Source: Mizuhopecten yessoensis
Lineage: Eukaryota
NCBI RefSeq assembly: GCF_002113885.1
Contig: NW_018408629.1
Location: forward strand, 1,321,971-1,385,970
Length of the DNA stretch: 64,000 bases
Direction: 5' to 3'
The position numbers were made by a program, and so were the translations under genes. The notes beneath the pieces are model-generated. The model did no database searches, was not told the DNA's origin, and saw only the letters and a list, made by a program, of their open reading frames with translations. Of this stretch, positions 3,644 through 63,731 are shown piece after piece (the first letter of the stretch is position 1; the number at the start of each line of letters is the position of its first letter).

Positions 3644-3870
3644 GATAATAATTATTCGAGGTTCTTATATACCGCTTTATCACAACCTAGTTCGTAGGTC
3701 GTCTCAAAGCAGTTCACAAATTATTATCCGTGGTTATCGGGCCTTGCAACCAGCCAATATATTTTTCAACTCCCTGGGGAGCATACAGCCGGTGCTGCCA
3801 TTTCGGCGTTCACAGCTAGTAGTCAACCAGAGCCTACCGTGCCTTCTATTCATACTGTCAGGCCCAATGA
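3644..3870 (-). mobile_element. 5'-truncated copy of the CORE-type SINE at 29002-29353
   Basis: About 190 bp collinear with 29010-29200 (tatcacaacctagttc...gggagcatacagccgg...ttcggcg), with (TAA)n tail. Confidence 0.8.
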
Positions 3871-5399: not shown

Positions 5400-5615
5400 T
5401 AATACACAGTTGTTTTATGCCTTATCCATCAACAGTCAAAACTATTTTCCCTCACAGTTGGGATCCACCAGAAGACTGTTTCCCGAGGCCGCTGTAGCTA
5501 GGCTTAAAAAATGATGATTGGACGAAAGAAGGAAACAGTTCTTCTGGTGGTTTCCAACTTCGAGGGAAATTAAATTGACTGTTGATTGACTTGGCATGAA
5601 ACAGCTGTTTTTTCA
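5400..5615. repeat. Long imperfect inverted repeat (fold-back non-autonomous DNA element, Crypton-type appearance)
   Basis: Left arm acagttgttttatgcc..atcaacagtcaa..ttccctc..agttggga.ccaccagaagactgtttcc mirrors right arm ggaaacagttcttctggtggtttccaact..gagggaa..ttgactgttgat..ggcatgaaacagctgt. Superfamily assignment is inference. Confidence 0.7.
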
Positions 5616-11123: not shown

Positions 11124-11330
11124 TTAAGATTCAACAGGCCTACTAAAAGATGGAATAATAACTCAAAATACCAATCCCCAGATGAGTCATGTTCAAATAA
11201 TCAAATGAAAAAATTGGAAATATTAACTATGTGAATTCCGATTGTTATTTGTTATCCTTGAACATGACTTATTAAGGGATTGAAATTGTGGAAGGCTATA
11301 TCATCACTTTAGGGGCTTGTTGAACCTTAC
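11124..11330. mobile_element. MITE with ~80-bp imperfect TIRs (TTAA-like flanks, GGTTCAACAAGCCCC-type terminus)
   Basis: Left ttaagattcaacaggcc..aatccc..agtcatgttcaa; right ttgaacatgactt..gggatt..ggggcttgttgaaccttac. Same terminal motif as the 50937/61381 pair. Confidence 0.75.
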
Positions 11331-13321
11331 CTAACATTATGTGGTGTAACGAAATCTAGGAAAAAACAAAAAGGTAACAAAATAATGATAAAATATCCGT
11401 GAAAATTACTTTATTTAAATATTTTTTTACCAAACTCAGGTAGGAAAAGGAGTACAAAGAGAAATTTGAAAACGAACACTGAGAAACACATATGACTAAA
11501 TGAAAAGCAGTTGTTTAATAATACAATGGGCCGATGGATTTTCAATTGCAGCGGGTTTTTTTCAAAGTTCAACTTTTAGATACTACTCAGAGTTGTTATG
11601 CCAAACAGAATATCTCCATAAACAAGCAAGTAGTATGAACTACTAATCGAGCACGCGCTTCTGGTTTGATGTATTCCAAGCTAATAATTAATAAATGAAC
11701 ATTACCCCTTTTTTTACCAAAAACAGTGTTTCGATTGAATGTGATAAAGCGTAACTAGAGCCACAAAGCAGAATATGAGATTAACACACTACAAACCCTA
11801 ATACAGTGCGTGTCATTTGACCATGACCATTTATAAACAAGTACTAAAATTAGGTGTTAGCATAATGTTTCCGGTAAAATCACTCGTGTCTGAATCGATA
11901 GGTGCTTATGTGTGCCATTCGTCATCATTAAGGTTTGGGTGCTACGTTTTCTTGAAGAATCCTTATAGCGTTTTAGGAGTCGACTGAACACTTTTGAAAC
12001 ACGCAATCGGTAAATTTCGATTTACCTTTTTGTGTTTTGATAGAACCTATTTCAATAGCCCTATTTGAACATTGATTAATAAATGTGTGTCGTCATACTA
12101 TGACTTCATCTGATGATTTAAGATTGATTTGAATTAACCGATGATGTGCAGCTCGTCAAATTAGTAATTTCATTTAAGACTGATTCTGTGAATGCGGTAA
12201 ATGGTATGTGTGCTGAAAGTCATTCAACATAATTGACTGCTCTGTATGTTGGAACGTAGACTCAACAGATTTATCTGACAAATTTGAAATCTGCGTCTGA
12301 CTGGAAGAGTTTACATTTAAGGCTTTTGACAACAGGTTCTGAATATTTCATATGGACATCATCCTTTTGATAGAAGGATTGAGGGAGATATAACCTTATA
12401 ATATTACAATATATTCACTGTGTGGTCGGAAAATAAGAAAAAAACCATTGACAACGTTTGTGAAAAATGAATACCCCTACTGACATCGCGTCGTCTATCC
12501 ATCAAGTCCTAAGCTTGTCGCCTAGAAACGCTTACTCACTCTAGGTTTTCATAAACATAATATTTGCACAAAGTTTCAGTTACATCAAAAAACAAGAGAC
12601 ATAAAAATTCAGTTAATAACAATGGTTTTTGATTTATAGAAACAGTGATCTTAACCTTGATATGCATTTCATATAACACAAACTCTTTTGAGGAAATTGA
12701 ACACACAGTTTCATCTAATACATAGAAAATAATAAAAGTAATAGAGCAACACTTAAGATTTTTCATTTATAGTAAACCTGACCTTGACTATTGATACACA
12801 GAGCATCTTACTCGTGATCATTCGACGAATTTATACTGGACAAGTATGGCTTTTAACAGTGAAGGGCGACAAATGGAATGATCATATAAATACAACAGCG
12901 GAGTAATGATGGAGATATATTACGGACGAAGAGATGTATGCCCTTCAATGTTATGGTAAGGGAATTAAATAGTAAGGTGACGCCAATGTTGGACCCATTA
13001 AGTCAGTGACAACACACATTCTTTTATTTCATTAGGGTCGTCTGACATAATGATATACTTTTGTAACAATCAGATTTAGGACGGAAAATTCTTAATCTTT
13101 CGCAGAGGCACAACGCATTTAGGGCCTAAACAGACAACATAATCTACGCCAATGCTGGAAACAGAAAAAACAACCATCTGAAAAAAGTCTTCAAGGTTTG
13201 CAGTCATATGATGTAATTGTTTAGTATGGACCTTGCCATTAAGAACACTCTAATGAAATTGGCCATTGTACCTTCCAAGACAACACTATCAGAAAACAGT
13301 TTTTTGGTGAAAAGGTCATAA

Positions 13322-13510
13322 TATTCCGTCTTTGCGTATTACAGAGTTATCTTCTTTTGAGAGCAGGTATTGATTGTTACGTCAATTGTTAGTGAGAGTA
13401 ACGTCATAATTTTTTGAGAAAACGACGTAATTTTCTCACACAAACCAATGACGTAACAATCAATACCTGCTCTCAAGAGAAGATAACTCTGCAATACGCA
13501 AGACGGAATA
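13322..13510. mobile_element. Palindromic MITE, family A copy 1
   Basis: Termini TATTCCGTCTTTGCGTATT..AGAGTTATC / GATAACTCTGCAATACGCAAGACGGAATA; near-complete hairpin; three copies in window. Confidence 0.9.
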
Positions 13511-29001: not shown

Positions 29002-29353
29002 GATAATAATAATAATTTGAGGATTTTATATACCGTTTTATCACAACCTAGTTCATAGGTCGTCTCAAAGTGGTTCACAAATTATTATCCGTGGTTATAG
29101 GGCGTTTGCAACCAGCCAATATCTTTCTCAACTCCCTTGGGAGCATACAGCCGGAGCTGCCGTTTCGGCGCTCACAGATAGCATTCACCAATTCTAGCAC
29201 TGCCCAACCACGTACTCATTAACAGCTGACTAGACTGGAACAAGCGGAGTAAAGTATCTTGCTGAAGGATACAACACAGTGCCGTGACGTGACTCGAATC
29301 CGCAACCATTCAGCTACGAGCCCGGGGTCCTAACACTTGACAAACGTGCCTCC
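29002..29353 (-). mobile_element. Full-length CORE-type SINE with L2-like 3' tail
   Basis: Minus strand: tRNA-like head (ggaggcacg..ggattcgagtc), CORE-like gttgtatccttcagcaagatactttact, tail ctttgagacg..cggtatataa..(tta)n. Second copy at 3644. Confidence 0.8.
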
Positions 29354-42019: not shown

Positions 42020-42322
42020 GTCTGTATGTTTGGGTCCTTGTATGTTGCCTTACCTTTCTTTCCTGTCTCTATTTTTGGTTTGCATGTAGATATTGTTCCT
42101 GACTGTAAGTTTAGTTCCTTGTGTGTTGACATTTCACACCTATTAGTATAAGTTCGGGTGCGTTGACCTTTCCTTTATGCATGTAATTGCGGGTCCTTGT
42201 GCGTTGACATTTCTTATTTGCCTGTAAGTACAAGTCCTTGTGCGGTGGTCTTTTAGTTTTGCTTGTAAGTACAAGTCCTTGTGCGATGGTCTTTCATTTT
42301 TGCCTGTACGTTCGGGTCTTTG
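42020..42322. repeat. ~42-bp tandem minisatellite, about 7 diverged copies
   Basis: Recurring tgtaagt(tcggg/acaag)tccttgtgcgttgac..ttt. Confidence 0.85.
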
Positions 42323-44695: not shown

Positions 44696-45334
44696 GGACT
44701 ATGTGATATATATAACGTCAAAGAGGGTAAGGTGAGTTAAAATACATCAGTCTATATAATAGAACGATGTCTTTCAATAATAAAATAATGCATTCGAGTC
44801 CACGGAACTGAAAAGAGTTTTCATATCCAGGACTCGAACGTAGTTATCACGAATGTGTTTCAAATCGGAACATTCTATTAAAAATGTTCTACTGTAAATG
44901 GAGTGTCACATGCGTGGCATGAAGGTGGATCTTACCGTTTTAAAAGGTACGAATGAGTAGGAAATGTGTGCCCAGTACAGAGCCGAGAGAGGACAACTTC
45001 TTCTCTACGATCTTTCCGACTGGGAACAGATGTTTTAAGTTTCAGTTGTATTTTAAAGAGTTTGTTGCTGGTCTTGAGAGACCATCGTTGCTGCCATTCA
45101 TTTTGAATAGCTGTACGAATAAATGGTTTAAAATCTGTATATGGTAGTTTGATATTTGTTTTTTAGAAATTTAACGCTTAATTTGCCTTCCTGTCAACAA
45201 ATTCGTTGCCTTTAATTCCGACATGGCTCGGAATCCATAGTAAAGTTATTTGAGATTTTTTTAAGACACGAGATTTGCGAAAAGCAAGGTTTTGTACGAG
45301 TGTGTTTTTAGGATCTCGTGACTGTAAACTTTGT

Positions 45335-45853: not shown

Positions 45854-47115
45854 TGTAAACTTGTAGGACAGATAGAGACTCTAAACAAAGTATTGCCTTT
45901 TAAATGCGGTGTTCATCGATATGGTCGAAGGCCAAACCAATGACGCATGCTTCGGCAGATGGAGGTGCCGTCTCGTAGTCGATCTGAAATGCAAGAATTA
46001 GCAGTACAGCAGGCTGCTGCCACTTTCTCACCATCTTTGGAACCATCGGTGTAAAGTTGTGTATGAGAAAGGTAATTAGCAACATGTTAAGAAAGTATCA
46101 TTTTTCTAACGAAGTGATACTAATGGTAGGTAGTCAAGTGAATCATGCTTCAAAACGGTTCAACTGGTTTGAGTTACTTTAAGCTAATATCTTTGGGACA
46201 ATGGGAAGTTTATTCGCCTCTGAAATATTATAACCACTAACTTAAAAGGTGAAACGTAAATACTATTTATTCGAATTTTAATTTATATTTAGTAGTGAAT
46301 TATAAAGCAGCCAGCAACACAGTACGGTTATATAAGGCCAGATGTTAGCGAAAACGTTAAGGATTGGTGGGACCAGCGAGATGTAGACGCGAAAGGTTAC
46401 AGTAAAAAAAGTTGACAGGTGTTCAGTAGCCTAACTGCTTTTGGTGATAGTTCCGTTTCGTAGAATGGTTTTGTTTGGTTGGTTCTGTTTTAAAGACCTC
46501 GCAACATCCATTGTCATATGAAGACGAGTTCTTATGTCAACACCACTGACAAGAAAGATTAGGCAAGTGAGAAAAAGAAAAAGAAAGAAAACCCGAGTGT
46601 TGGGATAGGGGCAGGAGTTTAATTTTGGTCTCTTCAATGTCCCGAAGACGGAAGGAACAGACAAAAAAAATCAATTTTGTAGGAGGCCCTGCATAAGTAA
46701 ACTATTATAACAGGTAAAGGGATACAGCAAAGCCTTTTTTCTCGGAACCTGCAGAGGTCTAGTCAAGTAAACAGAAGGAAACCGAATATGTGCAGGTAGA
46801 CACACATACGTCGTCCAATATCGTCAGGTAGTGGAATTCAGCTTTCTATTCCTTTCCCAAACATGAATAGCAAATAGTGTAAATAGGCGTTAGTGGTGAA
46901 AACTAGGTCTACTGACTGTCAATGACTGCTTGTTAGATTATCACTGACTTTGTCTACGTAAGTGAACGGCCTTCACAACGAAGTATCAAGTTACAACAAA
47001 TCGAAGGACAAAGCAACCGATTTCTTGTATCAACTAACTGGACTAATATATAAGATATTGTAAACTTGATATGCGTAATAACACCTCTACCTAAGTAGCA
47101 GTTATACACGTAGAT

Positions 47116-47247
47116 CAAGCTGACAACTAAGCACAATATGCAGTATAACAAGCTGACAACTAAGCTCAATATGCAGTATAACAAGCTGACAACTAAGCAC
47201 AATAAGCAGTATAACAAGCTGACAACTAAGCACAATATGCAGTATAA
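47116..47247. repeat. 33-bp tandem repeat, 4 near-perfect copies
   Basis: caagctgacaactaagcacaatatgcagtataa x4. Confidence 0.95.
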
Positions 47248-49290
47248 TAAGGTGGCAATTAAGAAAATGTACACACATAAAAAAACTGAAGTCAAACAAT
47301 TACTTTAAAAATGTCGTGACAATAAAACACCTCATTGTACGTAACAGCTCAGTTATTAAATAATTGACAAGTGACAAACTACTTGATTTGTATAGCAGAG
47401 TCATAACAAAGCAACACTTGGATTTATAAGATAACTAAACAACACAGCAGATGTGAGGTCATCAAGCATACGAGATGACATGTTCAGTTCAATACATAGA
47501 AAACATATATACAAAAGTAGACAAGAAGAAGGCAGGATTCGATACTAGGCCTTAATTGTAATGTAATTTAGGATATCAACAACGTATGTCTTTGATTCAT
47601 ATGGAAACTTGCGGACTTGATTTGCGTGTTAACCAATAAAATGGTAAATATGTCTCATAGCTGAAATTCATAATTGCTTAGCCTAACGTTAGCACTGTAT
47701 GCGGTTATTATTGCTTGTTCTTAATGCAATGATATCAAAACAAAAGACAAAGCATCCAGAACTCCTTCAAACCCAGGTACACTGGAAGGTTTAGCGTTTT
47801 CTGCAACACATGTGACTTATTCCGATGTTAAACTTGAAACCCACATAGATCCATAAAGAACTATAGTCGATAATGATATTTCAAAACAAATTGCTTAATT
47901 AATTTCTTAATTCTCTTAAGGCACTGTTTATTGCTTTCACGCGGCCATTCCTTTTTGTTCCCGTAGACCGTAGACCGTAACTAGTGTCTGGTTGATTTCA
48001 TCGTCTTACTTAAGTATCGTCCCAACAGCTTTAATGGTGTCATTATATGTTTACAGTATACAGAATATATACATATCCATATGTCTATTTTATTTAAATT
48101 TGGTTATGTTAAAAACTAACAACCGAAAAATGCGATATTTGCCACCGCCACGTAGGTTGATGTGGGAAACTTCATATATAAGGCTTACGATATTATTCAC
48201 ATATTTGAGATTGCTTAAATGGCATACGATATATGTTTCACGGATGTAGACAAATAGTGAAAATGAAATAAATCAGTAAAATTGTACAAATCCATTAAAA
48301 CAGCAATACTTCTCTCTGAGATGCAATACCATCAAATATATATTACAGCAGTTTTCACACATTTCGCAATATCTTTGAGCTTTCTGTGTTGCCGGTACAG
48401 CTGTTCTCTGTTAAAGCAGTATCATGCTTTGCCTCAATTCTGCAATTGCAGCGAAGCTATAAAGTAAGTGAACACAAGAAAAATAAATACCAAGTATACA
48501 CAGGTAGATGCAAGACAATATATATATACATACTTACTTTCGATTTTTCCAAATGACCTATTCTTGTATGGCTAATTCAGAATTTAACTGGTATAATACA
48601 ATCCAAGGAATGATTGAGCTAATTTCCAATTTCTCAGTCAAACACTGTCATTATGATCCCGATACTGCTCCGTACCATTAATGTGACTAGCCCAGATATA
48701 TCGTACTACACGCTTGTCAACACTCTAGCTTAGAACGGATCGTTATTTTTGTCATGACTGCGCACGCGTGACCACGAAGCTGTGTTGGATGCAATGCTTT
48801 ATCGCGACACCGCTATTGTGCCATCTGTCAACTGAATCCTTGGAGCGCTTTATTTACCCTGATCAGCTTAACGCTTTAAACAATGCTATTTTCTATACAA
48901 TAACCTTAAACTGTGTTCTGAGTCAATTTACGTTACCAACACCCCATCCCCTATCAGTTTTTAAAATAATATTAATCAGAATGGCTAATGTATCAAGATA
49001 TCCAATACGCTTCTCAGTAGTACATTTGTTTCAAACGAAAGCTTACGCTCTGAATAGTTCAAAATGCGGTATACCGTGACTGTGACGTTGCCAATATCGA
49101 CCCGTTACGTCCTGCTGTCGTGTCACCCCGACAGTCACGACCGAGTACTTTAGGTTTGTCTACCTGAATAATACATGCCTCTGTAGTAGTTCTTCTCCAT
49201 GGTATACGATGGTAATGGTATCATCTCTGTACTTAAGATAATTACGTTAAAGGGATGGCGGGACAACGAAAGACTGCCATACACGTACAC

Positions 49291-49799: not shown

Positions 49800-50255
49800 C
49801 TCTGTGACTATCTCCATGACTAAATGTTTTTAGTTAATATATCAGTGTTAATGAAACTCACCTTTTAAACCGCTGTTTTTGTCATTGTAGGTTGGTTTTA
49901 TTGTGTTGCTTATTTTCATTTTGTAATCTCATTAAGGTCCATTCAAAAATGACTGCATTATTATTTTATGATTTGGTGTTATAGGGCTATGTAGGTAGGG
50001 ACTGGCCCAACCACCTGTCTTGCTACACGTTTTAGTGCAGTAGTCTGTAGATATTGTTATATCAACACTAACCTTTCTTACATAACTTTAGTGTATTTTA
50101 ATTAGCCGACCTATATTTTATTCATATCTATTTGCATGTTATTGTTGTTTGTTTAATACTATACCTATGTTTGTCGCAGAAATAGCTCTACCGAGCTAAC
50201 GTTTGTATGTTTATGGTATGCGACGTGAAATAAATATTCTTGTATCTTGTATCTT
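49800..50255 (+). mobile_element. Probable LINE 3' UTR with terminal stem-loop and tandem tail
   Basis: gtcgca..tagctc-tacc-gagcta..tgcgac hairpin, then AATAAA and (tcttgta)n tail. Left boundary approximate. Confidence 0.5.
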
Positions 50256-50936
50256 TGGTCCAGATTTGTAATGAAACGTGTATCAGCGCGATATATTTGG
50301 TGAAGTGTTATTTGTTTAAACCTTTTGTCTTTATCTTTCACCCCACGTACATTTTGTCGAGACTGTTAAAACTTAACAAAAAATAGATGACCGTTATAAT
50401 ACTAAACAAAAGAAAAAGGACATCTTGAATTTTCACAAAATATCGGAGACGAAACGGATAACCAGTTAAGGTTCAATTGTATTACACCATAACCGGCATA
50501 TATATCTTCAGTCTTAACCTGTGAAATTATGTTGATAACCATATATCTAAGAGATATAATAATTTTACGTCTTCAGCAAACAGACGTAGAAAAATGATAG
50601 AAATAAGAGATATCTTTAAAAAGACAAACGGTAGAGTTTTCGTTTTACAATTAAACATTTGAAAAAGCTGCGTATCTCCTGACATTGAAACAATGGACCG
50701 GCGTTAAAAAAATCAATTATACAAACCATTCTTATCGTTCAACGGGAGATAACTCAAAAGTGCCAAAAGCATGTAGGATTCGATAGCATTTATGTGTATT
50801 ACACGTACACTGCCTAATGAAGTATAGAGATGAAAAAGTGTTTGATATTGCTGATATTCTTGTGAAAGATAGATATTTTATCATTATTATGAGAGGTGCT
50901 AGGGAAAAGAAAAAAAAACATATGAGCATACTAAAA

Positions 50937-50972
50937 GTTCAATAAGCCCCCTTGAAGAGGCTGTAGTCACCC
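50937..50972 (+). repeat. Left terminal inverted repeat of an interrupted MITE/DNA transposon
   Basis: 31/36 identical to the reverse complement of 61346-61381. Confidence 0.85.
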
Positions 50973-51079
50973 TAAAGTTTACCACGTTTTGTTTCTTGAA
51001 TGACTTTCTGTCCCTTGTTGCATGTATCGATGCCGTGATGACTGATGTGACTTATTTGTAAATTGATCAACTCACCACT

Positions 51080-51862
51080 ATGATTCCGGAAAAAGTTTTG
51101 CATATTTTGAAAACTTACGATTTGGAGCTCGCTAATTTAGACTGTTCTTTTGTTTTGAGTGAGAACACGGACAGTGTTTCCCTTACATTAAAATGGACAA
51201 AAGTAAGCATGCCATATTCGTAAACCAAATTTAATACTTCAAAAGCGAGTGACAGTGTGCAGGCACCTCCTGTTCAAATTACCAGGAAGCACAAGTCGCT
51301 GTCCCAACTCCGACATGACAGGAAACGAAGGAGGGAGTGGAAACAGAGGAAAAGGTCTTCCCATGAAAAGAAACCGATGTTTCCTGATCATTCACCATAT
51401 CCACGAGAATCTACTGGTGAGCCGCCCATACACCATGAAGATAAACATATTTGTAATACTGTGAGTGTGGAACCAGTTTGTGAGAAACTTGATGCAAAAC
51501 CCAAGGTTCAACATCAACAGCCAACTACTTTTGCCCCAGTTCTACATAATGCTATTGTTAATCATGTATCATCTCATTCTGTGCCGTCTACGGGACCACA
51601 TTTGAAAGCTGCTAGGTCAGTACCGACATCAGTCCCTGAAGCATGTGTTTCTATTGACAGCAAGGACATGCTAGCATTTTAACAGGAAAAAGAAGCGATC
51701 TTCCTCAGAAGCTTGTGTATAGGTAGACATTTATCAAATGGAACACTATTATTAGCATAATGATTTGTGAATCTTACATCATGACATTCTAGAGGATACT
51801 TATTCATTTTTGATGGACGTTGTTCCCCAATGAAGCCTATAGTTACCTTGATCAACCATTAA
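51080..51862 (+). pseudogene. Decayed uncharacterised ORF of an LTR-type element (MIPEKVLHIL...VSLTLKW...RKHKSLSQLRHDRKRRREW...)
   Basis: ATG 51080 is in frame with track ORF 51257-51682, separated by one TAA (51221-51223). The frame looks protein-like through further stops to ~51862. Followed by PPT and LTR. Confidence 0.6.
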
Positions 51863-52211
51863 CATTTCAGTATATCGATATTTTGGCCAGAACTTAACTT
51901 TACCATATCCTGTTACTTCATTGTTGTGTTACTATAGCTGTCATTGCTGCACGTTTGTCGATTTTTGATAGTTATTCAATCATCTTGATTTCAAAGACAC
52001 TTTTTTTTGGTACACGTCATGTGTAACTTACAAGTAGTTGTGTACATGAAACCGTATGTAAATTGTATAATCAGTTTATGTTTTGCCAATTTCGAATTAG
52101 TAAAACAAAACTTGATGCCAGTATAGCATTAGAATATATGTTATTGGGAAATGTAATTCTGTATATTCAATTGATGGTTGTTTAAAAAAATTAACTGGTC
52201 AATATTTGTTT

Positions 52212-52222
52212 TGCGGGGGAGA
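52212..52222 (+). other. Polypurine tract
   Basis: (t)GCGGGGGAGA directly abutting TGTTAT. Confidence 0.7.
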
Positions 52223-52427
52223 TGTTATATACATGGTATATATTATATTATAACCATCAATAGAATATCCGGAATTTACCGTTTTTGTGTATTATGGTAT
52301 TCCGTCTCCGTATCTTGGTTTTATGTTGTTTGACTTCCTGTTCCGGGAATAAAATGAAAAGTTGAAGAGTGAAATTGTTTCGATTCATCTGTTAATAATC
52401 CTCTCACATCGCAAACCCAGTACAATA
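52223..52427 (+). mobile_element. Short (~205 bp) 3' LTR of the ORF-bearing element
   Basis: TGTT start after the PPT, AATAAA at 52348-52353, likely end cccagtacaata (for ..aaca). An alternative end at GTAACA (52760) cannot be excluded. Confidence 0.55.
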
Positions 52428-53935
52428 TGTCATTTCGTAGCATTAAGTTGGGTTTCAAAAGAGATTGACATGTTATAAGTCCGATGAACTATTTTGATGA
52501 AAACATCGGCTGTACTTTACCGGATGTTGACAGTGCCTTTCCCATGGATTGATGGTTTGACAAGCTTCAGTCATATTTACTGGATAATTTGATATATTGA
52601 GGGATTTGTGGACCTCTCTTCATTCATTCAGCTATTTCTTTTGGAAACTTTGTAATACTGACGAGAAACAGTGTGTATTCAGAAGAGGAGACCCATATTA
52701 ATGAACTTCACACATGGAGGTATGCAGACAGCAGACCCGTGCAGTTTTGAGCCGGTAACACACGTGTGACATTTCATTAATGAATGACATTAATAGTTCA
52801 TATACGGTGCTTAACACTGTTTGTGTGTATCTAAATATTAATTCATTTGGATTTATTGTTGCCATGTCTATTTTTGTGATCAGTGTGAACGTGTTTTTGT
52901 GAGCATGGAAAGTGGATTCCCCTGCCCTGCTAGTGATTTCCTACAGAAAGGTTAGTAACTTGGTATTTTTGGTTAGTTGAATTTATTTATATTTCAGAGT
53001 TTTCTTGACTATTCGATTGATTCTGGCTAACAGATATTGCTGACATTATTATACAGGTTGAGACATCATGACGACCTTACTCTGATGACATCTTTGTGTA
53101 TGAATATATGTTGATGTTCTTGTGTGTCTGTTACTTGTGTGTTGCACTTATGCGCTTGCGACTTGTAGCATTTTGCTTTTGAAAAACTTGGAGTAACGTG
53201 AGTCGCGACATAATAATTTCTTATAATTTTGTTTCGCGTTGACTGAAATTTGATTTTCTCTATATTGGTGTCATATTTCATTTTCATGAATTCTTGTGTA
53301 TAATTTTGACATAGTGATCATAGTTATCTCCCTTTGATATCCACTTTTGATTATCCCCCTTGATTTTGTGCTAATTGTATATATATAGGTACAGGGTAGC
53401 TTATACTTCATACTTTGTTATCATTTATTGACAATTATCCATACTTTTGGACTTTGAAAATTTCATTTCATATTATTAGGTGATTATTCTATATAGGCTT
53501 ATTAGGTTATTATTTTCAGTTTGTTTACACATTGAATTTATTTATTATTTTGTCACTGATTGCACTGATACTGCTCAATCATTCTTTAGTATTTTGGATA
53601 TTTCAGTATATATTATTTGTCTTTTTGTGATTTCTGTTTACATTGTACTCATTTGATCTGATTTAATTTTGGTTTTTTCATTTCTCTTCTAGTTTTGTTG
53701 TAAATTTCATATTTCAGGAAAATCTTTTGGACTTTGAATTCTTGTATTTATTTTGTATTTATCATTTTTTTCTGGCTTTTTGATTCGGAAAACAGTTTGG
53801 ACGTTGCGGATTCAATGTGTGTATTTGTACATTCATGAACTTTGATATTTGTCTACAGGATTTATTCTCACTTTGGATTTCATGATTGTGTTATTTGTGT
53901 TACTCTGTTTGTGTTCATTGTGTGATATTTCAACT

Positions 53936-55075
53936 ATGGCTGAAGGCAGTGAGGAGCAGGTGGCACATTTATTGGAGGCATTTTCGAGCATGGACCTCAA
54001 ACCTAACTTGGAGTCTAAGGATGCTGCAGCTAAATGGTTAGCTGATCTATTATCAGGAGGAGCCAAATCCAAAAATCCCAATGTAAAATTAGAAGTGTTG
54101 GATCCTTCACCACAGGCAGACGTTCAAGGTCATCAAGAGGATGCTGCACCTCCCAGTAACCAATCAAGTGTTTCATACAATGTTCCAAAGATCTCCATAT
54201 TCTCAGGATGTTCTCAAGTTCCTAATGGAGAGGTCTCCTATGACCAATGGATATATGAGGTCAAGATGTTACAGCGAGATGGTGTATACAAAGATCATGC
54301 TATTTTTCAGGCTGTGAGAAGATCCTTGGGAGGAGAAGCAGGAAAAACAGCGATGAGACTTGGTTCTTCAGCAACACTTCAACAGGTACTGGACAAGCTG
54401 GTCAGCAACTATGGTAATATTGCTGCTACTGAGGATTTACTTGCCAAGTTTTACTCTGCCAAGCAAACAGATACAGAGGATGTGACATCATGGGCTGGCA
54501 GACTAGAAGATATACTAGACAAGGCTAGGACCAGATGCGAACTTACTCCAACACAAGTGTCAGAGATGTTGCGTACCAAATTCTGGCGAGGACTTAAGAA
54601 GTCATTACGTGACATCACCGGTTATAAGTTCGATACCATCTTAGACTATGACAAGCTGCGTATTGCTGTTCGACAGATTGAGCAAGCAGATTCTTCACCT
54701 GAGAAGCCCAAGACTGCTAAAGTAGCCATTCACCACAGTGATGACATTAAAGAAATGAAAGCTTTGGTAAAAGATTTAACTTCTGAGATGTCTAAGTTGA
54801 AGAAGGACATATCCACTTTACAACAGAGTAGGAATCTTTCCAGTTATGGTCAACAGTCCACTTATGGGGCACGTCAGGGTTATCAAGCATCACCTCAGGA
54901 ACACACTCAGAATAGGAGGCAAGTTGTGCCATTTAGAAGAAATACTGATGGAAATGGACCGCTCTGCTGGAGATGTGGACAATCTGGACATATGAGACGT
55001 GATTGCCATGTGAATTTGGAGCACAGCAGGAAGTCTTTAAACGTTCAGATGCCTACAGGCCAGGGGCACCAGTAG
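53936..55075 (+). CDS. gag: Gag, PNMA/Ma-like capsid plus CCHC zinc knuckle (379 aa from actATGG)
   Basis: PKISIFSG..GEVSYDQW..AVRRSLGGEA..FYSAKQ..WAGRLE capsid signature; coiled coil; CWRCGQSGHMRRDC. Confidence 0.93.
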   Translation: MAEGSEEQVAHLLEAFSSMDLKPNLESKDAAAKWLADLLSGGAKSKNPNVKLEVLDPSPQADVQGHQEDAAPPSNQSSVSYNVPKISIFSGCSQVPNGEVSYDQWIYEVKMLQRDGVYKDHAIFQAVRRSLGGEAGKTAMRLGSSATLQQVLDKLVSNYGNIAATEDLLAKFYSAKQTDTEDVTSWAGRLEDILDKARTRCELTPTQVSEMLRTKFWRGLKKSLRDITGYKFDTILDYDKLRIAVRQIEQADSSPEKPKTAKVAIHHSDDIKEMKALVKDLTSEMSKLKKDISTLQQSRNLSSYGQQSTYGARQGYQASPQEHTQNRRQVVPFRRNTDGNGPLCWRCGQSGHMRRDCHVNLEHSRKSLNVQMPTGQGHQ

Positions 55076-55098
55076 GCATGATCAGTCAGCAATGCCCT
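55036..55098 (+). promoter_or_regulatory. -1 programmed ribosomal frameshift element
   Basis: T TTA AAC (55036-55042) phased XXX-YYY-Z in the gag frame, pol in -1 frame, 6-nt spacer. Stem ATGCCTAC/GTAGGCAT; loop GGGGCA complementary to TGCCCT downstream. Confidence 0.85.
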
Positions 55099-57668
55099 AA
55101 CGTTCGGAAGGATAATACTGAGTTAGTTGGAGACTGCAGTGAGGAAGAGCTTAAGATTGCAGGAGTGTGTACCACTGCATTACTAGACACAGGGTCAGCT
55201 GTAAGCACTGTTAGTCGACATTTGTATGATACTTACCTCAGTCATTTGCCACTTCAGTGCCTTGACAACATATTGGATATCGAATGTGCTGGAGGAGAGA
55301 CATTACCCTATGATGGATTTATCAAGGCTGACATTGAGACTGGGATCGACGGTCATACTTCATCGTTGCCAGGGTTGTTACTTGTTGTGCCGGATACCAG
55401 GTATAATTCCAAAGTGCCAGTTTTGGTTGGTACCAACATCTTGACAGGTATCATGGATGCATGTAAGTATGTTTACGGAGACAGATTGTTGAAGGGAGCT
55501 TCTCTCTCAACATCCTGGTATATCACTTTCAGATGTATGGCACTACGACAGCGAAACTTGGTACGGAATAATTTTCGTCTTGGACTTGTCAAGAGTGCAG
55601 AGGGTACTGCAGTTCAGATATCGCCAAATAGCCAGGTAACCATTAATGGCTTTGTGGATCGTCAAGTGGAGCATACACCAACTAGTGCTTATCTCACAGT
55701 ATCTGAGGAGTCATCATTGATGGATGATTTAGATATTTCGCCAAGCCTTATTCAATACCGCTATAGAAGGACTGGTGTTGTTTTTGTGATCATATCGAAC
55801 ATCACAACCAGGAATGTTACCATACAGCCTCGAGCTGTGTTATGTGAACTTCAGCCGGTTAAGGTAGAAGGATGTTTACAGGATGTTAACACAGAATCAA
55901 TTGATGCTCCTACATCTAAAGATACAGATATGGATTCCCTACTACAGCTGATGAAGTTTGATGACAGACTTACTGAAGAGGAGTTATCCAGTGGAAAGCA
56001 AATGATTTCTAGTTTCCCAGATATATTTTCCAAGGATGATTTGGATCTTGGTCATTCCTCAGCTGTTCATCACCGCATAGAAATTACAGATGAGGTGCCA
56101 TTCAAACAACGTCATCGGCGTATTCCACCTGCCATGCTTAGTGAAGTTCGTGATCACCTACACCAACTCTTGACAATCGGAGTCATACGTCGATCACATT
56201 CACCCTGGGCATCAGCAGTTGTATTAGTTCGGAAAAAGGATGGTCGCTTGAGAATGTGCATAGATTACCGACAGCTGAATCTTAGGTCTATAAAAGATGC
56301 TTATGCTCTTCCTAGGGTGGAAGAAATTTTGGACTCTATATCAGGTTGTGACTACTTTTCTACGCTTGATATGAAGAGTGGTTACCATCAAGTGGAACTT
56401 CACGAGGACCACAAACAACGGACTGCTTTCACTATTGGGCCTTTATGTTTTTATGAGTTTAATCGGATGCCGTTCGGATTAGTGAATGCTCCAGCCACAT
56501 ACCAGAGATTAATGGAGGAATGTCTGGGAGAGCTACATACCACCATTTGTTTTGTATATATTGATGACATTATTGTGTTTTCCAAGACATTCAGTGAACA
56601 TCTTGACCGACTGCAGATGGTATTCGACAAGATCAGATGTCATGGTCTGAAGTTGGCTCCACAGAAGTGTTCATACTTCAAGAAGAAAGTGAAGTTTCTT
56701 GGCTTCATAGTGTCAGCCGATGGCATTGAAGCGGATCCAGACAAAGTGCAAAAGATCGTGGACTGGCCTAAACCTTCTTGCCCTGAGGATGTAAGAAGGT
56801 TTCTAGGATTCTGTGGTTATTACCGCAAATTTGTGAAAGGATTTTCAGCAATTGTGAAACCATTGAATGGACTGTTACCTCCTACACGGAACAAAGGCCA
56901 CTCAAAGAAGTCGGACTTACCTGGGTGGAAGTGGGAAAAAGAACAGGAAACAGCATTTCAGACCTTGAAGGATATTTTATCTTCACCTCCCATTCTTGGC
57001 TATCCGGTATATGACTTGCCATTTGAAGTGCATACCGATGCAAGTGGAAAAGGTCTTGGAGCCATTCTCTACCAGCAGCAAGATGGTAGATCACGTGTCA
57101 TCGCTTATGCCAGCAGGGGTGTAACAAAATCTAAGAGGAATTACCCTGCACATAAATTGGAATTCCTTGCCTTGAAATGGGCCGTAACCGACAAATTTGC
57201 AGATTATCTGTATGGAAGGACGTTTACGGTAACCACAGATAATAACCCTATGACGTACGTTTTGACCACTTCCAAGTTAGATGCAACCGGACATCGGTGG
57301 TTAGCTGCGTTATCTGCATATGATTTCAACATCATTTATAAGCCAGGAAGGACCAATACAGGTGCGGATATCTTGTCAAGATTACCTTGCCATTTTGATG
57401 GAGAGGAGCAGTCTACAGCCGTGAGTGATATCTCTCTGGATTCGGTCAAGGCCATATGTAGTTCTGTTCAGCAGCCAGTGTCTTTGATTGAGACTGTTTC
57501 CATGTCTACTGCCGTTTTTGATGGTCATTGCATGGACACCGACCAGGATCTTCAGGAAATGTCTTCTAGAGACTGGAGACGGGCACAGGATAGAGACCCA
57601 GCACTTCGATATTGGATATTCTGTGTCAAAAACAGCAGGAAACCTGACAAAAGACAATTGGATCCTGC
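55036..57668 (+). CDS. pol: Pol: aspartic protease, reverse transcriptase, RNase H (uninterrupted up to the N at 57669)
   Basis: LLDTGS; RMCIDYRQLN, LDMKSGYHQV, MPFGLVNAPATYQR, YIDDII; HTDAS, KLEFLALKWA, TDNNP, ADILSR. Confidence 0.97.
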
Positions 57669-58497
57669 NATTTTCAGCAATTGTGAAACCATTGAATGGA
57701 CTGTTACCTCCTACACGGAACAAAGGCCACTCAAAGAAGTCGGACTTACCTGGGTGGAAGTGGGAAAAAGAACAGGAAACAGCATTTCAGACCTTGAAGG
57801 ATATTTTATCTTCACCTCCCATTCTTGGCTATCCGGTATATGACTTGCCATTTGAGGTGCATACCGATGCAAGCGGGAAAGGTCTTGGAGCCATTCTCTA
57901 CCAGCAGCAAGATGGTAGATTACGTGTCATCGCTTATGCCAGCAGGGGTGTGACAAAATCTGAGAGGAATTACCCTGCACATAAACTGGAATCCCTTGCC
58001 TTGAAATGGGCCGTAACCGACAAATTTTCAGATTATCTGTATGGAAGGAAGTTTACGGTAACCACAGATAATAACCCTCTGACGTACGTTTTGACCACTG
58101 CCAAGTTAGATGCAACCGGACATCGGTGGTTAGCTGCGTTATCTGCATATGATTTCAACATCATTTATAAGCCAGGAAGGACCAATACAGTTGCGGATAT
58201 CTTGTCAAGATTACCTTGCCATTTTGATGGAGAGGAGCAGTCTACATCCGTGAGTGATATCTCTCTGGATTCGGTCAAGGCCATATGTAGTTCTGTTCAG
58301 CAGCCAGTGTCTTTGATTGAGACTGTTTCCATGTCTACTGCAGTTTTTGATGGTCATTGCATGGACACCGACCAGGATCTTCAGGAATTGTCTTCTAGAG
58401 ACTGGAGACGGGCACAGGATAGAGACCCAGCACTTCGACACTGGATATTCTGTGTCAAAAACAGCAGGAAACCTGACAAAAGACAATTGGATCCTGA
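56841..58497 (+). repeat. 828-bp direct duplication across a single N (56841-57668 vs 57670-58497)
   Basis: Collinear, about 18-19 substitutions by hand count (~2%), no indels seen. Confidence 0.95.
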
Positions 58498-60244
58498 TCA
58501 GCAAGCTATGTTGCGATCATTTGACAGGTTGAAGATTGAGAGGGGTGTACTGTACCGTGGAGTTACAGAAGATGGAGCAACACGGAAGCAGCTTGTGTTA
58601 CCTTCTGCTTACCGGAAACAGGCATTATATGGTCTCCATAATTCTGTTGGACACCCTGGTCGTGATCGGACATTGTCGTTGTTGCAGGAGAGATTCTATT
58701 GGCCGGGAATGAACCAGGACGCGGAGAGATGGGTGAAAAGCCGACGCTGTGTGTCAAGGAAGGCTGTTACTCAGAAGGCACCATTAGTGAATATTCAAAC
58801 GACGCAGCCACTAGAGCTAGTGTGCATGGATTTTCTCACTTTAGGAGGATTCCAACACATTCTCGTCGTGACCGACCACTTCACGAAATAAGCCCAAGCC
58901 ATTCCGACGAAAACCAGACGGACAAGACCACAGCGGAAGCCTTCTTTTATAACTTCGTGGTGCATTATGGAATGCCTCGACGGATACACTCTGACCAAGG
59001 TGCCAATTTCGTTGGAGAGTTAATCCATCAGCTATGTGCCATGGCCAACATCAAGAAGAGTAGGACTACGCCTTACCACCCGATGGGTAATGGAAGTTGT
59101 GAAAGATTCAACAGAACGTTGCTTGGGATGTTGGGTACTTTGGATCCGAAGGAGAAAGGGGACTGGAAAAGGCACGTTGGTCCGCTTGTTCATGCATACA
59201 ACAGCATCCGGCATGATAGCACAAGCTACTCGCCCTTCTTCTTGTTTGGCAGGCATCCCAGGTTACCTATCGACTTGGCATTCGGAGTAGATATAGGAGG
59301 AAAACATCAAACTCTTTCAGGATATGTCTCATCGCTTCGTGATAATCTGAAGAAGGCATATAACTTAGCCAGGAGTCATACAGCTTCCGCATCAAAGCAC
59401 CAGAAGAAGATTACGACAGAAGAGCCAGAGCGGCTGATTTACAAGACGGGGAGTACTAGTGCGGATTGTGGCTTTCGAGGGCAAACATAAGATTTCCGAT
59501 AAGTGGGAAGCGGAAGATTATGTGGTTCTCCGTCAGCCAAATCCGGATGTTCCTGTGTATGTTGTAAAGAGATGTAATGGTGATGGGAAGGAAAGGACTT
59601 TACACCGTAATTTACTTTTACCTATCGACTTTCTTCATGATGGAAACGAGACGAACCAGGAAAAGAAAACTACATCAGAAACATAAGTTACTAAGAAGAG
59701 GACACAGACTAAGCCAGAGGATACAGGTAATTTATCGGAGTACGACTCTGATGAAGATGTCGACAAATCTGTCGTCATTTTGGATACTTTACAGGGCCCG
59801 CTATCGGACATGGAGAATGGGATTCTAGCAAGTCCCAAGGAGGATACTCCGGAACCTGATAGTCCTGAAGATGGGGCTGCTCAGTCTGCAAATGGCGACG
59901 ACCATATTCAGTCTGAGGCAGTGGATGTAGCACCACCAGGTGACGACCAAGTCTCCAGGAACGACGAGGCTGGAGGTGCTACGATCCAGGAAGAAGATGG
60001 AGATGTGGATGAACCACAGGTACCTACGCCAGCTCCCAGAAGATCTGTGAGGGCAAGGCAACCTCCTCTCTGGCAACGATCAGGAGAGTTCGTGATGAGC
60101 CAAGTGTGTCCCGGTACGTCAACGGATTGGATCACGAGAGCTGAGTATTTACAAAGCCTTGTTGAGCGTGGAATGCTTGCTCCAGACCGAGTATCTGATG
60201 CTCTAGTAAGGATTGTTTGTGGAGATAATCTTCCTGTGATGTGA
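57670..60244 (+). pseudogene. pol: Second copy of RNase H followed by disrupted integrase and acidic C-terminal tail
   Basis: HHCC finger lacks one Cys (LHNSVGH..KSRRC); TAA at 58889-58891; frame changes near 58910, 59410-59460 and 59680. Catalytic D (VCMDF), D at 58993 and E at 59101 keep D(35)E spacing. Confidence 0.9.
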
Positions 60245-60411
60245 TTTGATTATGGTTTGTACGCTGAGCTCTATTTTGTTTTATGTCATAAATGTTATAT
60301 AGGAATATGGTTTCCTTCATGATTTAGTATCGTCTGTATGATTTGTACGATATCTAGAAAGTGCATTGATTTGTGTTGTTTTAACTTGATTCCATCTTTT
60401 ATTCATGTTGC

Positions 60412-60748: not shown

Positions 60749-61221
60749 GTTTTCTGCCTTGTGACGTTAATGCACGATACGTGTTGTAAGTGTATTTATA
60801 CTGTATTTAAAGTGTATTTATATTGCATCTATAATGTATTGATAGTGTATAAAGGTAATATTAAATGCATGTAATTGGAATTTCAAGATTCGAAGTATCG
60901 TAAACGTTTATGATAATGTTTAAAGTAAAATAACTATTTTGCTGAAGTCCTAGATGTTATTCTTATATCAATGAATAATTCCTTGTTGGAAAATATAATA
61001 AATAAGTACCAGAAAGTGTTGTAATTTTATTATCTTAGTACTGGTCATTGAATTGTTGAGATTTGTAGATTGGATTTTACTCGAATGTGACATATATGCA
61101 TGTAGAGCTTATACGTATTTTTATTGTGTATTTCAGAATGTTTCTATTTATAAGCATTAAAATGCGATAGAACCGAACCCAGCGACTTTGTCTTATTTTC
61201 GACAACTTCCCACCCGCTACA
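60749..61221 (+). mobile_element. 3' part of an LTR (probably the Gypsy 3' LTR)
   Basis: ATTAAA at 61156-61161 followed ~60 nt later by ...CCCGCTACA; attachment to the pol copy is across a gap. Confidence 0.6.
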
Positions 61222-61345
61222 CTATGTTAACCTCGTTAGCGAACATTTAACAGCTAATGTACAAGTTCAATATATTTAAGATACATATATAAGTTCCGAT
61301 TTTTAATTTGGGTCTTTGCATGTGACTGGATGGGGCTTGAACCTG

Positions 61346-61385
61346 GGGTGACTATAGCCTATTTCAGGGGGCTTGTTGAACCTTA
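61346..61385 (-). repeat. Right terminal inverted repeat matching 50937-50972
   Basis: gggtgactatagcctatttcagggggcttgttgaacctta. Confidence 0.85.
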
Positions 61386-63185
61386 TAATTATATCAGTCA
61401 TTATTCCAATGTCTGTTACGATGTCAATGTCAATTACAGGCTTGTAGATTGTTATCAAAATCTGTATTGGTGACGTCTGTACATAGACCTATTAAATACT
61501 GGAAAAGTCATCAACATAAACGTGTACAGCTGCATCAGAATACGTGCACAAGATACCAAACACGGATTAAGGGAGCTAACTCCAAACACGCCAGTTAAGT
61601 TTCATTGACATGCAAGTTGTCTCCCTTCTCAAGATATATAAATTTGATTGGACTATTTTACCTTTTTTGACCTACATAACTTCGGTCAGTTTTGTAAATG
61701 TTGTCTTAATTTTCTTGATTGTCTATTTAATGATGAAAAGGGCGTAAATGCCAAACATTATTTCAAATAGACATGTATTGTACGGTTTCGCTAAAAGTCA
61801 TCTTGCTGCATGCTACTTCAATTATGAAGCTTGAAGTGTATGCGACCTTAGCGATTATATAACCAAGACATGTGTTGAATGGTATTTCAGATGTTGTATT
61901 AATATATATAAAGTGTTGTAAACATATCCAAGTGTACCCCAAAGACAGATTTTGTCGCACTGAACATGTTACTCGTTAAACCAACAAGCAGTCTGCAAAG
62001 TCCTGCAATCTAGAAAATCACCAAGGTTAGGGAACTAAGTCAAACTTCAGCAATACCGGAATTGTCGAATGAGGAATGAGAAAATGAGGAAAGCTCCTGG
62101 AATTTTCAAAAAGTGGCAAGTTCAAACGTCATGTACAAAAGGCATACACAAAGCAGCCAACATTTGTCATACCCAAGTTTCTGTTGGACTTTCTCAACCA
62201 ATGAGGTTGTGTAACCCTCTTCGCAGGTGCTAATAAAACCACATGCATACATTTTACTTGGTAAATTTACATTGTTCATATGCAAAATACGTCTGGTTTG
62301 ATTGTGGTCCTAATCTCAATGTTGTACATGTACTTGTATAAAACTAAGCGTGTGAGTTATTGTCATGCTTGATATCTAATTGCATTTAAACAACAAATTT
62401 TCAGTGATTGGGTTGTGACTATCATGAACTGTTAGTGGTAGAATAGTTGAATGTTTATATGTGTCTCAGTCATCAAAGTGGTTTGAACAAAAGTCAAACA
62501 ATAGTACAAGTTCAGTTATAAGTATATGACGTTAAACAGTTGCTTTATAATGGAAATATTGAAGTAATCATGTATCAGATAAAACATTGATACCCTTGTG
62601 CTAATTGTTTCTCAATTATATGTATATAACTTTGTGGCTACCATGATGATGGAGATTTACTTCATTTCGTTCTGACGCTGCTCAAACAAAGTTATATGAA
62701 GGTGCAATACCGTGATGATTTAACGAAAGAGATGCAATTGTTGCATAGGTAATTTTATCAAAGCATTCAAGTATCTAGTGTGCGTAGGAATATCCACAAT
62801 ATGAAACGCGTCTCAGGATTGATTAATACTATCATATTATCTCCCTCAACTCGAGCCAGATTTACCTGTTTGTGTGTCACTCTTCGAAACCTGTACCTGT
62901 GAATAGACGGAAACACCACATACAGTCACTACAGCATGAGCAGTTCCAAGGTAAGTTGTATCAACATTTAATTTATTGTTTCTGTAATGATAAAGATATT
63001 TTTCAATTAATATTTTTTATGTCTGTAAATGATTTAGAGTGTAGGTATTTGCTATAGCATATTTGGATTGAGGGCAGCTACCACGTTCTCTGCTTAACAT
63101 TCGTTTAATGTTTAATGTGTTAGTTGAAAAGCGCTTGGACAGTTTAGCGTTGAGCACACGTACGTATTATCTCCCTCACAAGATG

Positions 63186-63731
63186 TTTCATATCCGGGAC
63201 TCGAAAGTAGTCATCACAAATGTGTTTAAAATAAAAACATGCTATTAAAAGATGTTCCACTGTAAATGGAGTGTCACATGCGTAGCATGAAGGTGGGTAT
63301 TCTCGTTTTAAAAGGTACAAATGTGTAAGATGTGTGTGCCCAGTACAGAGTCGAGAGAGGACAACTTCCCGACTGGGAACAGATGTTTTAATTTTCGGTT
63401 GTACTATAAAAAGTTTGTTGCTGATTTCGAGAGACCAGCGTTGCTGCTATTCTTTTTGAATGGCTGTACGAATGATAGGTTTAAAATCTGTATATGGTAG
63501 TTTGATATTAGTTTGTTCGAGATTTAACGCTTAACTATTTTGCTTTTCTGTCAGCAAATTCGTTGCCTATAATTCCGACATGGCTCGGAATCCATAGTGA
63601 AGTAATTTTAGATTTCTTTAAGATACAAGATATGCGAAAAGTAAGGTTTTGTACGAGTGTGTTTTTAGGATCTCGTACCTGTAAACTTTGTAGGACAGAT
63701 AGAGAGTCTGAACAAATGATTGCCTTTTTAA
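63186..63731. mobile_element. Right-end fragment of the Kolobok-like element (uninterrupted paralog of 44819-45334 plus 45865-45903)
   Basis: Collinear similarity over ~545 bp; ends gattgcctttTTAA. Confidence 0.85.

Follow-up and report, generated by a model that had tools for sequence, protein, structure and literature searches.

Plant Ty3/gypsy retrotransposons such as Retand and Grande are described as carrying extra open reading frames (ORFs) before the 3′ long terminal repeat (LTR), envelope (Env)-like in sense orientation and often nuclear in antisense (PMC7264820, PMC11963269). The extra animal genes that we found described are envelopes (PMC13524379), the short ORFs (sORFs) of the MDG1 group, small fusogens and one nuclear sORF1 (bioRxiv 10.1101/2025.03.14.642691), and the main text of a survey of mollusc Gypsy elements does not use the word ORF (PMC6238403). 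Here we describe a decayed ORF in a 64,000-nucleotide stretch of the genome of Mizuhopecten yessoensis (assembly GCF_002113885.1, contig NW_018408629.1, positions 1,321,971 to 1,385,970 of the forward strand), which we call the window and number from its first base. The ORF (51080–51726, on the + strand like all features below unless stated otherwise) is followed by a T-rich untranslated region (UTR), a polypurine tract (PPT) and a putative LTR. Sequence comparison supports the view that it belongs to a genuine, selectively constrained, stand-alone protein family. On balance, we favor a reading in which 51080–52424 would be the 3′ end of a 5′-truncated LTR retroelement that carried this gene as an accessory to, and distinct from, Gag, Pol and Env.

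The ORF spans approximately 215 codons and is pseudogenised by a stop and a frameshift. It opens with an ATG at 51080 that has A at position −3, and the frame from this codon meets TAA at 51221–51223 and again at 51680–51682. An earlier note on this DNA, made from the letters alone, had described a frame broken by point stops. The TAA at 51221–51223 is such a stop; the second break is instead a frameshift near 51677–51680, beyond which tblastn places the last residues of a conserved motif in a different frame ending with TAG at 51724–51726.

The encoded protein has four stand-alone homologs (124–277 amino acids, 33–73% identity) and two possible distant ones. The nearest, P0003, was one of 86 candidates returned by a word-based search; it is 73% identical over 123 amino acids and open across the first stop of the window copy, and at 124 amino acids it appears itself to end early. 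A phmmer search with P0003 against 1.84 billion representatives gave six matches, namely the query, three true homologs (P0004, P0005 and P0007; 244–277 amino acids, 33–41% identity) and two long, repetitive proteins (P0006 and P0008) that we discarded as spurious, their best single-domain scores being at most 6.2 bits. The close members share a Met start at a common position, and the longest has 277 residues. Profile searches added P0009 (E 0.079; four matches listed among 6,656 candidates of 190–2000 amino acids) and P0010 (E 7.6; five listed among 1,485 candidates). These score 30.8 and 21.3 bits, respectively, against a maximum of 10.0 in 1,000 shuffles, both having been preselected by the profile searches, and are possible distant members of the family. 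P0009, from a 1,470-nucleotide contig in ENA, ends in a CxxC...CxxC pattern in place of the C-terminal motif of the family, which hints that one N-terminal module can be paired with varying tails.

Two N-terminal blocks of the window copy are identical to P0003 at 51 of 57 positions compared with 39 of 65 elsewhere (Fisher p=2e-4). The family profile matched none of six segments of the neighbouring Gypsy element (best E 0.38), and no fusion to Gag or Pol occurred among the 6,656 candidates of 190–2000 amino acids, where no homolog exceeds 277 residues, a negative that the tool itself rates as weak. Comparisons of this kind support the view that the ORF is neither a piece of the neighbouring gag or pol nor Env-like. 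The earlier statement that it has no capsid, Pol or env-like transmembrane features holds for the protein and does not extend to the absence of pol from the whole element. Phage records gave no informative match, and GTDB genomes contained no homolog (0 of 59 pattern matches confirmed; 0 of 192). The family is apparently undescribed: we found no description of it in the literature covered, although Repbase, most subscription journals and bioRxiv supplements fell outside that scope and could hold one.

Alignment of the family reveals conserved residues 1–41, a conserved basic block at residues 72–87 and a variable linker. The N-terminal module (51080–51202) contains an invariant Trp39 and is modelled by AlphaFold2 as helix-strand-strand. 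The basic block falls in a predicted Arg/Lys-rich helix with the pattern KSxSQxR....R...W (51293–51358), and the window copy and four close homologs have 10–14 Lys and Arg per 28 residues there. A short C-terminal motif (51644–51726), split by the frameshift and absent from the earlier note, is common to the three full-length homologs P0004, P0005 and P0007. When a profile of this motif built from the three was run against 3,609 six-frame segments, the window frame came top (E 0.0013); the second frame scored E 0.2. The start codon, the N-terminal module and the basic motif had been recognised before and are retained here. A Pro/Ser/His-rich linker had also been proposed; the linker of the window protein is rich in Pro, Ser and Val, and its high His content (10% of linker residues, versus 1–2% in three homologs) is a trait of this copy rather than of the family.

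AlphaFold2 was run on shallow alignments and gave low-confidence models (pTM 0.26 and 0.20) in which a helix, two strands and a long basic helix are surrounded by disorder. The pLDDT was 63–75 in the N-terminal module and 87–90 in the basic helix. The structural check suggested in the earlier note, by AlphaFold and Foldseek, therefore returned a helix-strand-strand arrangement at low confidence and no matching fold: with these low-confidence models as queries, Foldseek found nothing at E≤0.001 in the PDB or BFVD, and a wide VIA-align search reached a best Z of 2.6. A homodimer prediction, run without an alignment, scored 0.04. Pfam contains no domain above cut-off in the window protein or the family, with no Gag, capsid or CCHC match, and PHROGs, PDB sequences and the ESM Atlas gave no informative match to the protein. 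Empty searches of structures and families do not establish a new fold. The protein is predicted to have no transmembrane helix because its mean Kyte-Doolittle hydropathy over 19 residues peaks at 0.70 for the window copy and does not exceed 1.18 in five homologs (0.49–1.18 across all six proteins).

These properties set the ORF apart from the extra genes of known elements. It is like the plant aORF-3S and antisense additional ORFs in lying upstream of a PPT and 3′ LTR and in having no homologs in databases, and a nuclear or nucleic-acid-binding role has been proposed for the antisense group (PMC7264820, PMC11963269). It is unlike them in being in sense yet having no predicted transmembrane helix and no match to TRP28 or any other Pfam family; in addition, it is apparently animal and no pol is linked upstream in this copy. 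Gypsy elements that carry Env or sORF2/FAST, as these are described, have a transmembrane helix in the extra ORF, a feature absent from all six proteins of this family.

The region 3′ of the ORF carries the signals on which we base the LTR reading. The 486-nucleotide 3′ UTR (51727–52212; 40% T) contains no AATAAA or ATTAAA and passes, after a run of T, into the PPT GCGGGGGAGA (52213–52222), with TGTTAT directly 3′ at 52223. From there a putative 202-bp LTR extends to 52424 (TG...CA, with CA at 52423–52424), and the AATAAA at 52348 within it is the only one in 50936–53935. All of the signals that had been reported earlier, the T-rich UTR, the clean PPT, the TGTT start and the AATAAA, were confirmed. 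The boundaries of the LTR had been given as 52223–52427; its natural end is at 52424, a position picked by eye, and its identity derives from these signals, as the unit occurs once in the window. By pattern, a G-rich tract abutting TGT is present at only three or five sites on both strands of the window, so the chance of finding such a site between the end of the ORF and gag is 0.03–0.07. Bivalve LTR elements are reported to have the same junction (PMC10886601). The first TGG 3′ of 52424 is at 52449 and none lies within 24 nucleotides; thus, no primer-binding site (PBS) directly follows, as expected of a 3′ LTR. Ten bases past the putative end, TCGTAGCA at 52435–52442 differs at one position from the start of an initiator-Met PBS, and it is too short to count.

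An imperfect inverted repeat (52147–52281, unstranded), not mentioned in the earlier note, straddles the junction of PPT and LTR, its core arms (52155–52179 and 52252–52276) being complementary at 22 of 25 positions. It may be an RNA hairpin or a small miniature inverted-repeat transposable element (MITE). Among 1,254 sampled junctions, 13 attained the score of this repeat, 35; two of them are its own site and 11 lie at five palindromic MITE-like loci. As RNA it folds to a long stem (z −2.2, 4/200 shuffles; z −3.0, 1/200, in a window picked afterwards). We regard it as a candidate cis signal that could tie the UTR to the start of the LTR and serve as a binding site.

On the features tested, the element lies outside the TRIM, TR-GAG and Env/sORF2 classes. 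If it were a satellite, it would share with TR-GAG a short LTR structure, a lone ORF and the lack of pol (PMC4350172). The ORF of TR-GAG is Gag, whereas nothing in the window protein matches Gag, capsid or CCHC and the window shows one putative LTR rather than two; the family profile of the protein reaches only E 0.38 against the neighbouring gag, and it is predicted to contain one helix, two strands and one helix. Elements of the TRIM type, including bivalve Helenus, likewise have a short LTR and a G-rich PPT abutting TGT and depend on Gypsy in animals, but TRIMs are non-coding and shorter than about 1 kb, unlike the at least 1,345 nucleotides with a coding ORF found here (PMC10886601). The LTRs of Helenus and Ajax are described as derived from tRNA or 5S sequence; the putative LTR has no tRNA or Rfam match, 5S included. 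Troyka elements have CG termini, which do not fit the TG...CA of the putative LTR (PMC12440569). MDG1 sORF1 of Drosophila Metaviridae resembles the predicted product as a small nuclear accessory protein made from a short, 1.5-kb transcript; it differs in its length of about 110 amino acids and its position between the 5′ LTR and gag, the two having been compared by description only (bioRxiv 10.1101/2025.03.14.642691). There is also a precedent in MaLR, a non-autonomous animal LTR element with one internal ORF that is generally held to be gag-derived; the window protein, in contrast, has no Gag signal.

The locus is embedded in nested repeats. Directly downstream, 52425–53935 is non-coding and increasingly T-rich, with no recognisable PBS or LTR copy, and we read it as the 5′ leader of a Gypsy-type element (53936–60244) with gag (PNMA, zf-CCHC) and pol (reverse transcriptase (RT), RNase H, integrase), the integrase region being broken. 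The end of its integrase (59687–60244) is a long, acidic, low-complexity tail without a Pfam match. Within pol, blocks 56841–57667 and 57670–58496 form an 827-bp tandem repeat (97.8% identity, with a single N at 57669) that probably reflects two haplotypes or copies overlapping in the assembly. A gap of 337 N follows pol, and beyond it lies an LTR-like 3′ terminus (60749–61221), with ATTAAA at 61156 and the ending ...CTACA at 61221; it is unlike 52223–52424, and calling it an LTR was a judgement by eye. An apparent likeness between the 3′ region of the ORF and the DNA after the gap was rejected, as shuffled sequences equalled its score in 29, 219, 80 and 256 of 300 cases across the four scoring schemes used, although under two of these schemes 8 and 11 of 468 other windows scored as high.

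A 39-bp inverted pair (50934–50972 and 61346–61384; 33/39 identical) brackets the ORF, the LTR and the Gypsy element. Its left partner belongs to a fragment of approximately 40–49 nucleotides (50936–50984) whose inverted copy ends at 61384 (blastn E 1.2e-5), and its right partner terminates another fragment (61222–61382). The terminal 16-mer of the pair is of the same family as that of a 201-bp palindromic, Kolobok-like MITE at 11127–11327, which has RR..YY ends and TTAA and TTAC flanks. The right fragment aligns to this MITE (61244–61383 to positions 68–201; score 238 versus a maximum of 192 in 300 shuffles) and the alignment of the left fragment is weak on its own. The bracketing termini are AG/GG..CC with flanks TAAA and TTAT, each matching TTAA at three of four positions. 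The lengths of the two fragments, about 45 and 161 nucleotides, sum to approximately the 201 nucleotides of the intact relative. The simplest reading is what looks like one 201-bp MITE cut in its left arm by approximately 10.2 kb of nested inserts. Between the left fragment and the ATG lie approximately 95 nucleotides (50985–51079) with no LTR copy or PBS, and no AG dinucleotide occurs after 50977. With only about 100 nucleotides from MITE to ATG and neither signal in them, the 5′ end of the element that carried the ORF is missing.

We searched further upstream for that end. Four-base TSD (target-site duplication) candidates, ATAT followed by TG, are present at 50055 and 50849, with none of 5–6 bp, and neither starts an LTR-like copy. 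The site at 50055 (ATAT, then TGTTATAT, approximately 201 nucleotides and TGG) was tried as a 5′ LTR and rejected: its global score against the putative LTR is 61, with a shuffle mean of 62, and 166 of 300 shuffles score as high. This candidate ends like the tail of a long interspersed nuclear element (LINE). At 50229–50255, approximately 700 nucleotides left of the split MITE, AATAAA is followed by short TATCTTG repeats, presumably the 3′ tail of a LINE.

Several observations weigh against the retroelement reading. The LTR is unproven because the window contains no second copy of 52223–52427 above shuffled scores (blastn and Smith-Waterman, whole window) and no 5′ LTR, PBS or matching TSD upstream of the ORF, so the label derives from signals rather than from duplication. 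The missing second terminal repeat nonetheless does not exclude an LTR origin, since the 5′ end is apparently deleted and a gap lies downstream. The lack of AATAAA in a UTR of 486 nucleotides is weak evidence. The folding z-scores come from windows picked post hoc, and a neighbouring window reaches −2.6 among 22 sliding windows; the straddling repeat could instead be a small MITE in its own right, in which case the PPT and TG would be a coincidence and the LTR would be undercut. Tested column by column, a comparison that hinges on a linker of poor alignment, conservation did not differ significantly (50/63 versus 40/60, p=0.15). At the point where the MITE is proposed to be split, no TSD agrees; the scaffold is gapped and probably carries a duplication artefact close by; and the DNA context of the homologs was limited to searches of prokaryotic genomes, all negative.

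Of the alternatives, the one that survives best, though we consider it improbable, is that the ORF came from another mobile element, either a DNA element of unknown type or a non-LTR element whose first ORF it would be, with 52223 onward being the 5′ LTR of the Gypsy element itself or no LTR at all and the purine tract coincidental. The Gypsy element has no other identifiable 5′ LTR, and the 337-N gap could hide a collapsed 202-bp 3′ LTR. Arginine-rich motifs are known in ORF1 proteins of the CR1 clade (PMC3905857), and the remaining local inverted repeats of the window are MITE-like. Such a coincidence has to be set against the absence of a PBS directly after 52424 and the low chance of a PPT-TGT site, and against an inverted repeat that links both sides of the junction. 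We saw no remnant of an RT, an endonuclease or a transposase beside the ORF.

A little less probable still is a permuted copy of the neighbouring Gypsy family, in which the ORF would be the third ORF of that family and a tandem copy, a one-LTR circle or a chimeric assembly would have produced the order ORF3-PPT-LTR-leader-gag-pol. Sharing or collapse of an LTR would yield one LTR and the observed same-strand order of PPT, LTR, leader and gag, and the assembly gaps and duplicated 827-bp block are in keeping with the idea. However, no PBS follows the LTR; the sequence at 60245–60411 and after the gap is unlike the leader or UTR of the ORF; and an ORF, a UTR and an LTR would not fit into a gap of the stated size (337 N).

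We give less credence again to an upstream accessory ORF in the 5′ region of the Gypsy element, comparable to sORF1 of the Drosophila MDG1 group, whose nuclear product comes from a short transcript that is polyadenylated prematurely, before gag. The ORF is on the same strand as gag and 2.2 kb ahead of it, and one AATAAA follows it, giving a predicted message of approximately 1.3 kb; for MDG1 sORF1, nuclear staining and a transcript of 1.5 kb are reported (bioRxiv 10.1101/2025.03.14.642691). This would leave the PPT and TG...CA unit unexplained, and the ORF has neither a 5′ LTR nor a PBS ahead of it.

It is very unlikely that the ORF was the gene of a Kolobok-like DNA transposon with terminal inverted repeats (ends at 50936 and 61382) into which LTR elements later inserted. 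The inward-facing 39-bp pair does bracket the ORF, with the ATG 144 nucleotides from the left end, and its RR..YY termini and TTAA-like flanks agree with the published definition (PMC9587614), in a superfamily whose bivalve distribution has been documented (PMC10294476). However, the two fragments together appear to amount to an ordinary 201-bp MITE with a cut in the left arm, which would put the ORF in a later insert. The family alignments contain no invariant Cys and lack the Cys-rich, P2X7 ballast-like pattern of KolX, and KSPSQ is absent from four supplement files of that publication (PMC9587614). Equally improbable is that a host gene, lineage-specific and fast-evolving, left a decayed retrocopy or transduced fragment here. 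Any small gene family could have conserved blocks and stand-alone homologs, none of them tied to a mobile element, but the ORF is intronless, sits in nested repeats and has a PPT behind it where a retrocopy would have a poly(A) tail. P0003, the nearest homolog, apparently ends early too, as decaying copies of elements do.

The window holds other repeats as well. Three copies of a palindromic MITE of about 200 bp (13309–13510, 16659–16840 and 25872–26075) are 87–90% identical, and an element of approximately 210 bp with 50-bp inverted arms lies at 5401–5613. A dispersed repeat in three copies (21540–21676, 25140–25322 and 27160–27346), within which ARAGORN predicts a tRNA-Glu at 27276–27346 on the minus strand, is likely a tRNA-derived short interspersed nuclear element. 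Decayed coding fragments on the minus strand (44813–45334 and 63180–63691; 86% identical, with a weak zf-RVT match at E 0.049) look like the 3′ end of ORF2 of a non-LTR element. A dispersed repeat of approximately 185 bp (3642–3825 and 29003–29187; 89% identity) is unclassified, and short tandem arrays with units of 21, 41 and 33 bp are present at 19437–19742, 42158–42321 and 47110–47274, respectively.

Returning to the truncated LTR retroelement, we propose that the parts surviving in the window are the accessory ORF, the 3′ UTR, the PPT and the 3′ LTR. The element would have inserted into the 5′ leader of the neighbouring Gypsy element, both coming to lie inside the 201-bp MITE, and a single deletion may then have taken the 5′ LTR of the Gypsy element together with the 5′ LTR, the PBS and any sequence upstream of the ORF. 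The intact protein would have had approximately 215–280 amino acids and been neither Gag, Pol nor Env. It would have been translated from a message of about 1.3 kb polyadenylated in the LTR, because the only AATAAA in 50936–53935 lies there.

What the protein did is a more tentative matter. The earlier note had called it a small basic RNA-binding or nuclear localization signal (NLS) protein; the basic motif is present, is predicted to be helical and keeps its Lys and Arg content across close homologs, and the function follows by analogy. A disordered protein with one Arg/Lys-rich helix has the layout of an arginine-rich RNA binder, so the helix is a candidate NLS or nucleic-acid-binding motif and the protein is probably, by this analogy, a nuclear nucleic-acid binder. 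The helix may be comparable to that of HIV Rev. A search of PDB sequences with the family profile found no arginine-rich-motif RNA binder (best match ribosomal S21, E 0.85), so the likeness to such binders is an analogy only. In ORF1 proteins of the CR1 clade an arginine-rich motif was proposed, by analogy with lambda N, to bind structured RNA of the element; the family shares with these a short Arg/Lys-rich helix, a trailing Trp, a largely disordered protein and a candidate cis RNA hairpin (PMC3905857). Given an LTR element, we tentatively suggest that the protein would enter the nucleus via the basic helix, and that its arginine-rich motif might bind the element RNA at the candidate hairpin bracketing the PPT and so aid export, packaging or expression of that RNA. 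The conserved N- and C-terminal modules could contact other proteins.

The earlier note had gone further and placed the orphan ORF in a non-autonomous LTR element. The protein family, the PPT, TG...CA and AATAAA signals and the lack of a PBS after 52424 agree with an LTR element; its non-autonomy is not demonstrated by them. A third ORF in an autonomous element is as good a fit as a satellite, because the 5′ part is absent from the window. We lean slightly towards an intact element with pol upstream and think a satellite without pol somewhat less probable. The longest contigs that bear homologs, at 1,150–1,586 nucleotides, nearly agree with the 1,345 nucleotides from ATG to LTR end in the window, which is weak evidence. 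A bolder version, which we think unlikely, is a satellite LTR family of invertebrates without gag or pol whose own selected arginine-rich RNA binder would route its RNA into a helper Gypsy element. In that version, which we likewise think unlikely, the protein would recognise the hairpin bracketing the PPT and its terminal modules would lead into the export or packaging pathway of the helper.

Should the link to the LTR fail, the remainder would be an uncharacterised protein family of mobile elements. If it holds, a conserved, basic, non-membrane accessory protein beside a PPT and LTR would be a new class of extra gene in animal Gypsy-type elements and a test case for Rev-like regulation outside retroviruses. 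Intact copies without pol would in turn constitute a coding satellite without Gag, a type that we did not find described in the literature. The finding would name a family of proteins so far unannotated and provide a marker for elements that annotation pipelines keyed to gag and pol leave unclassified.

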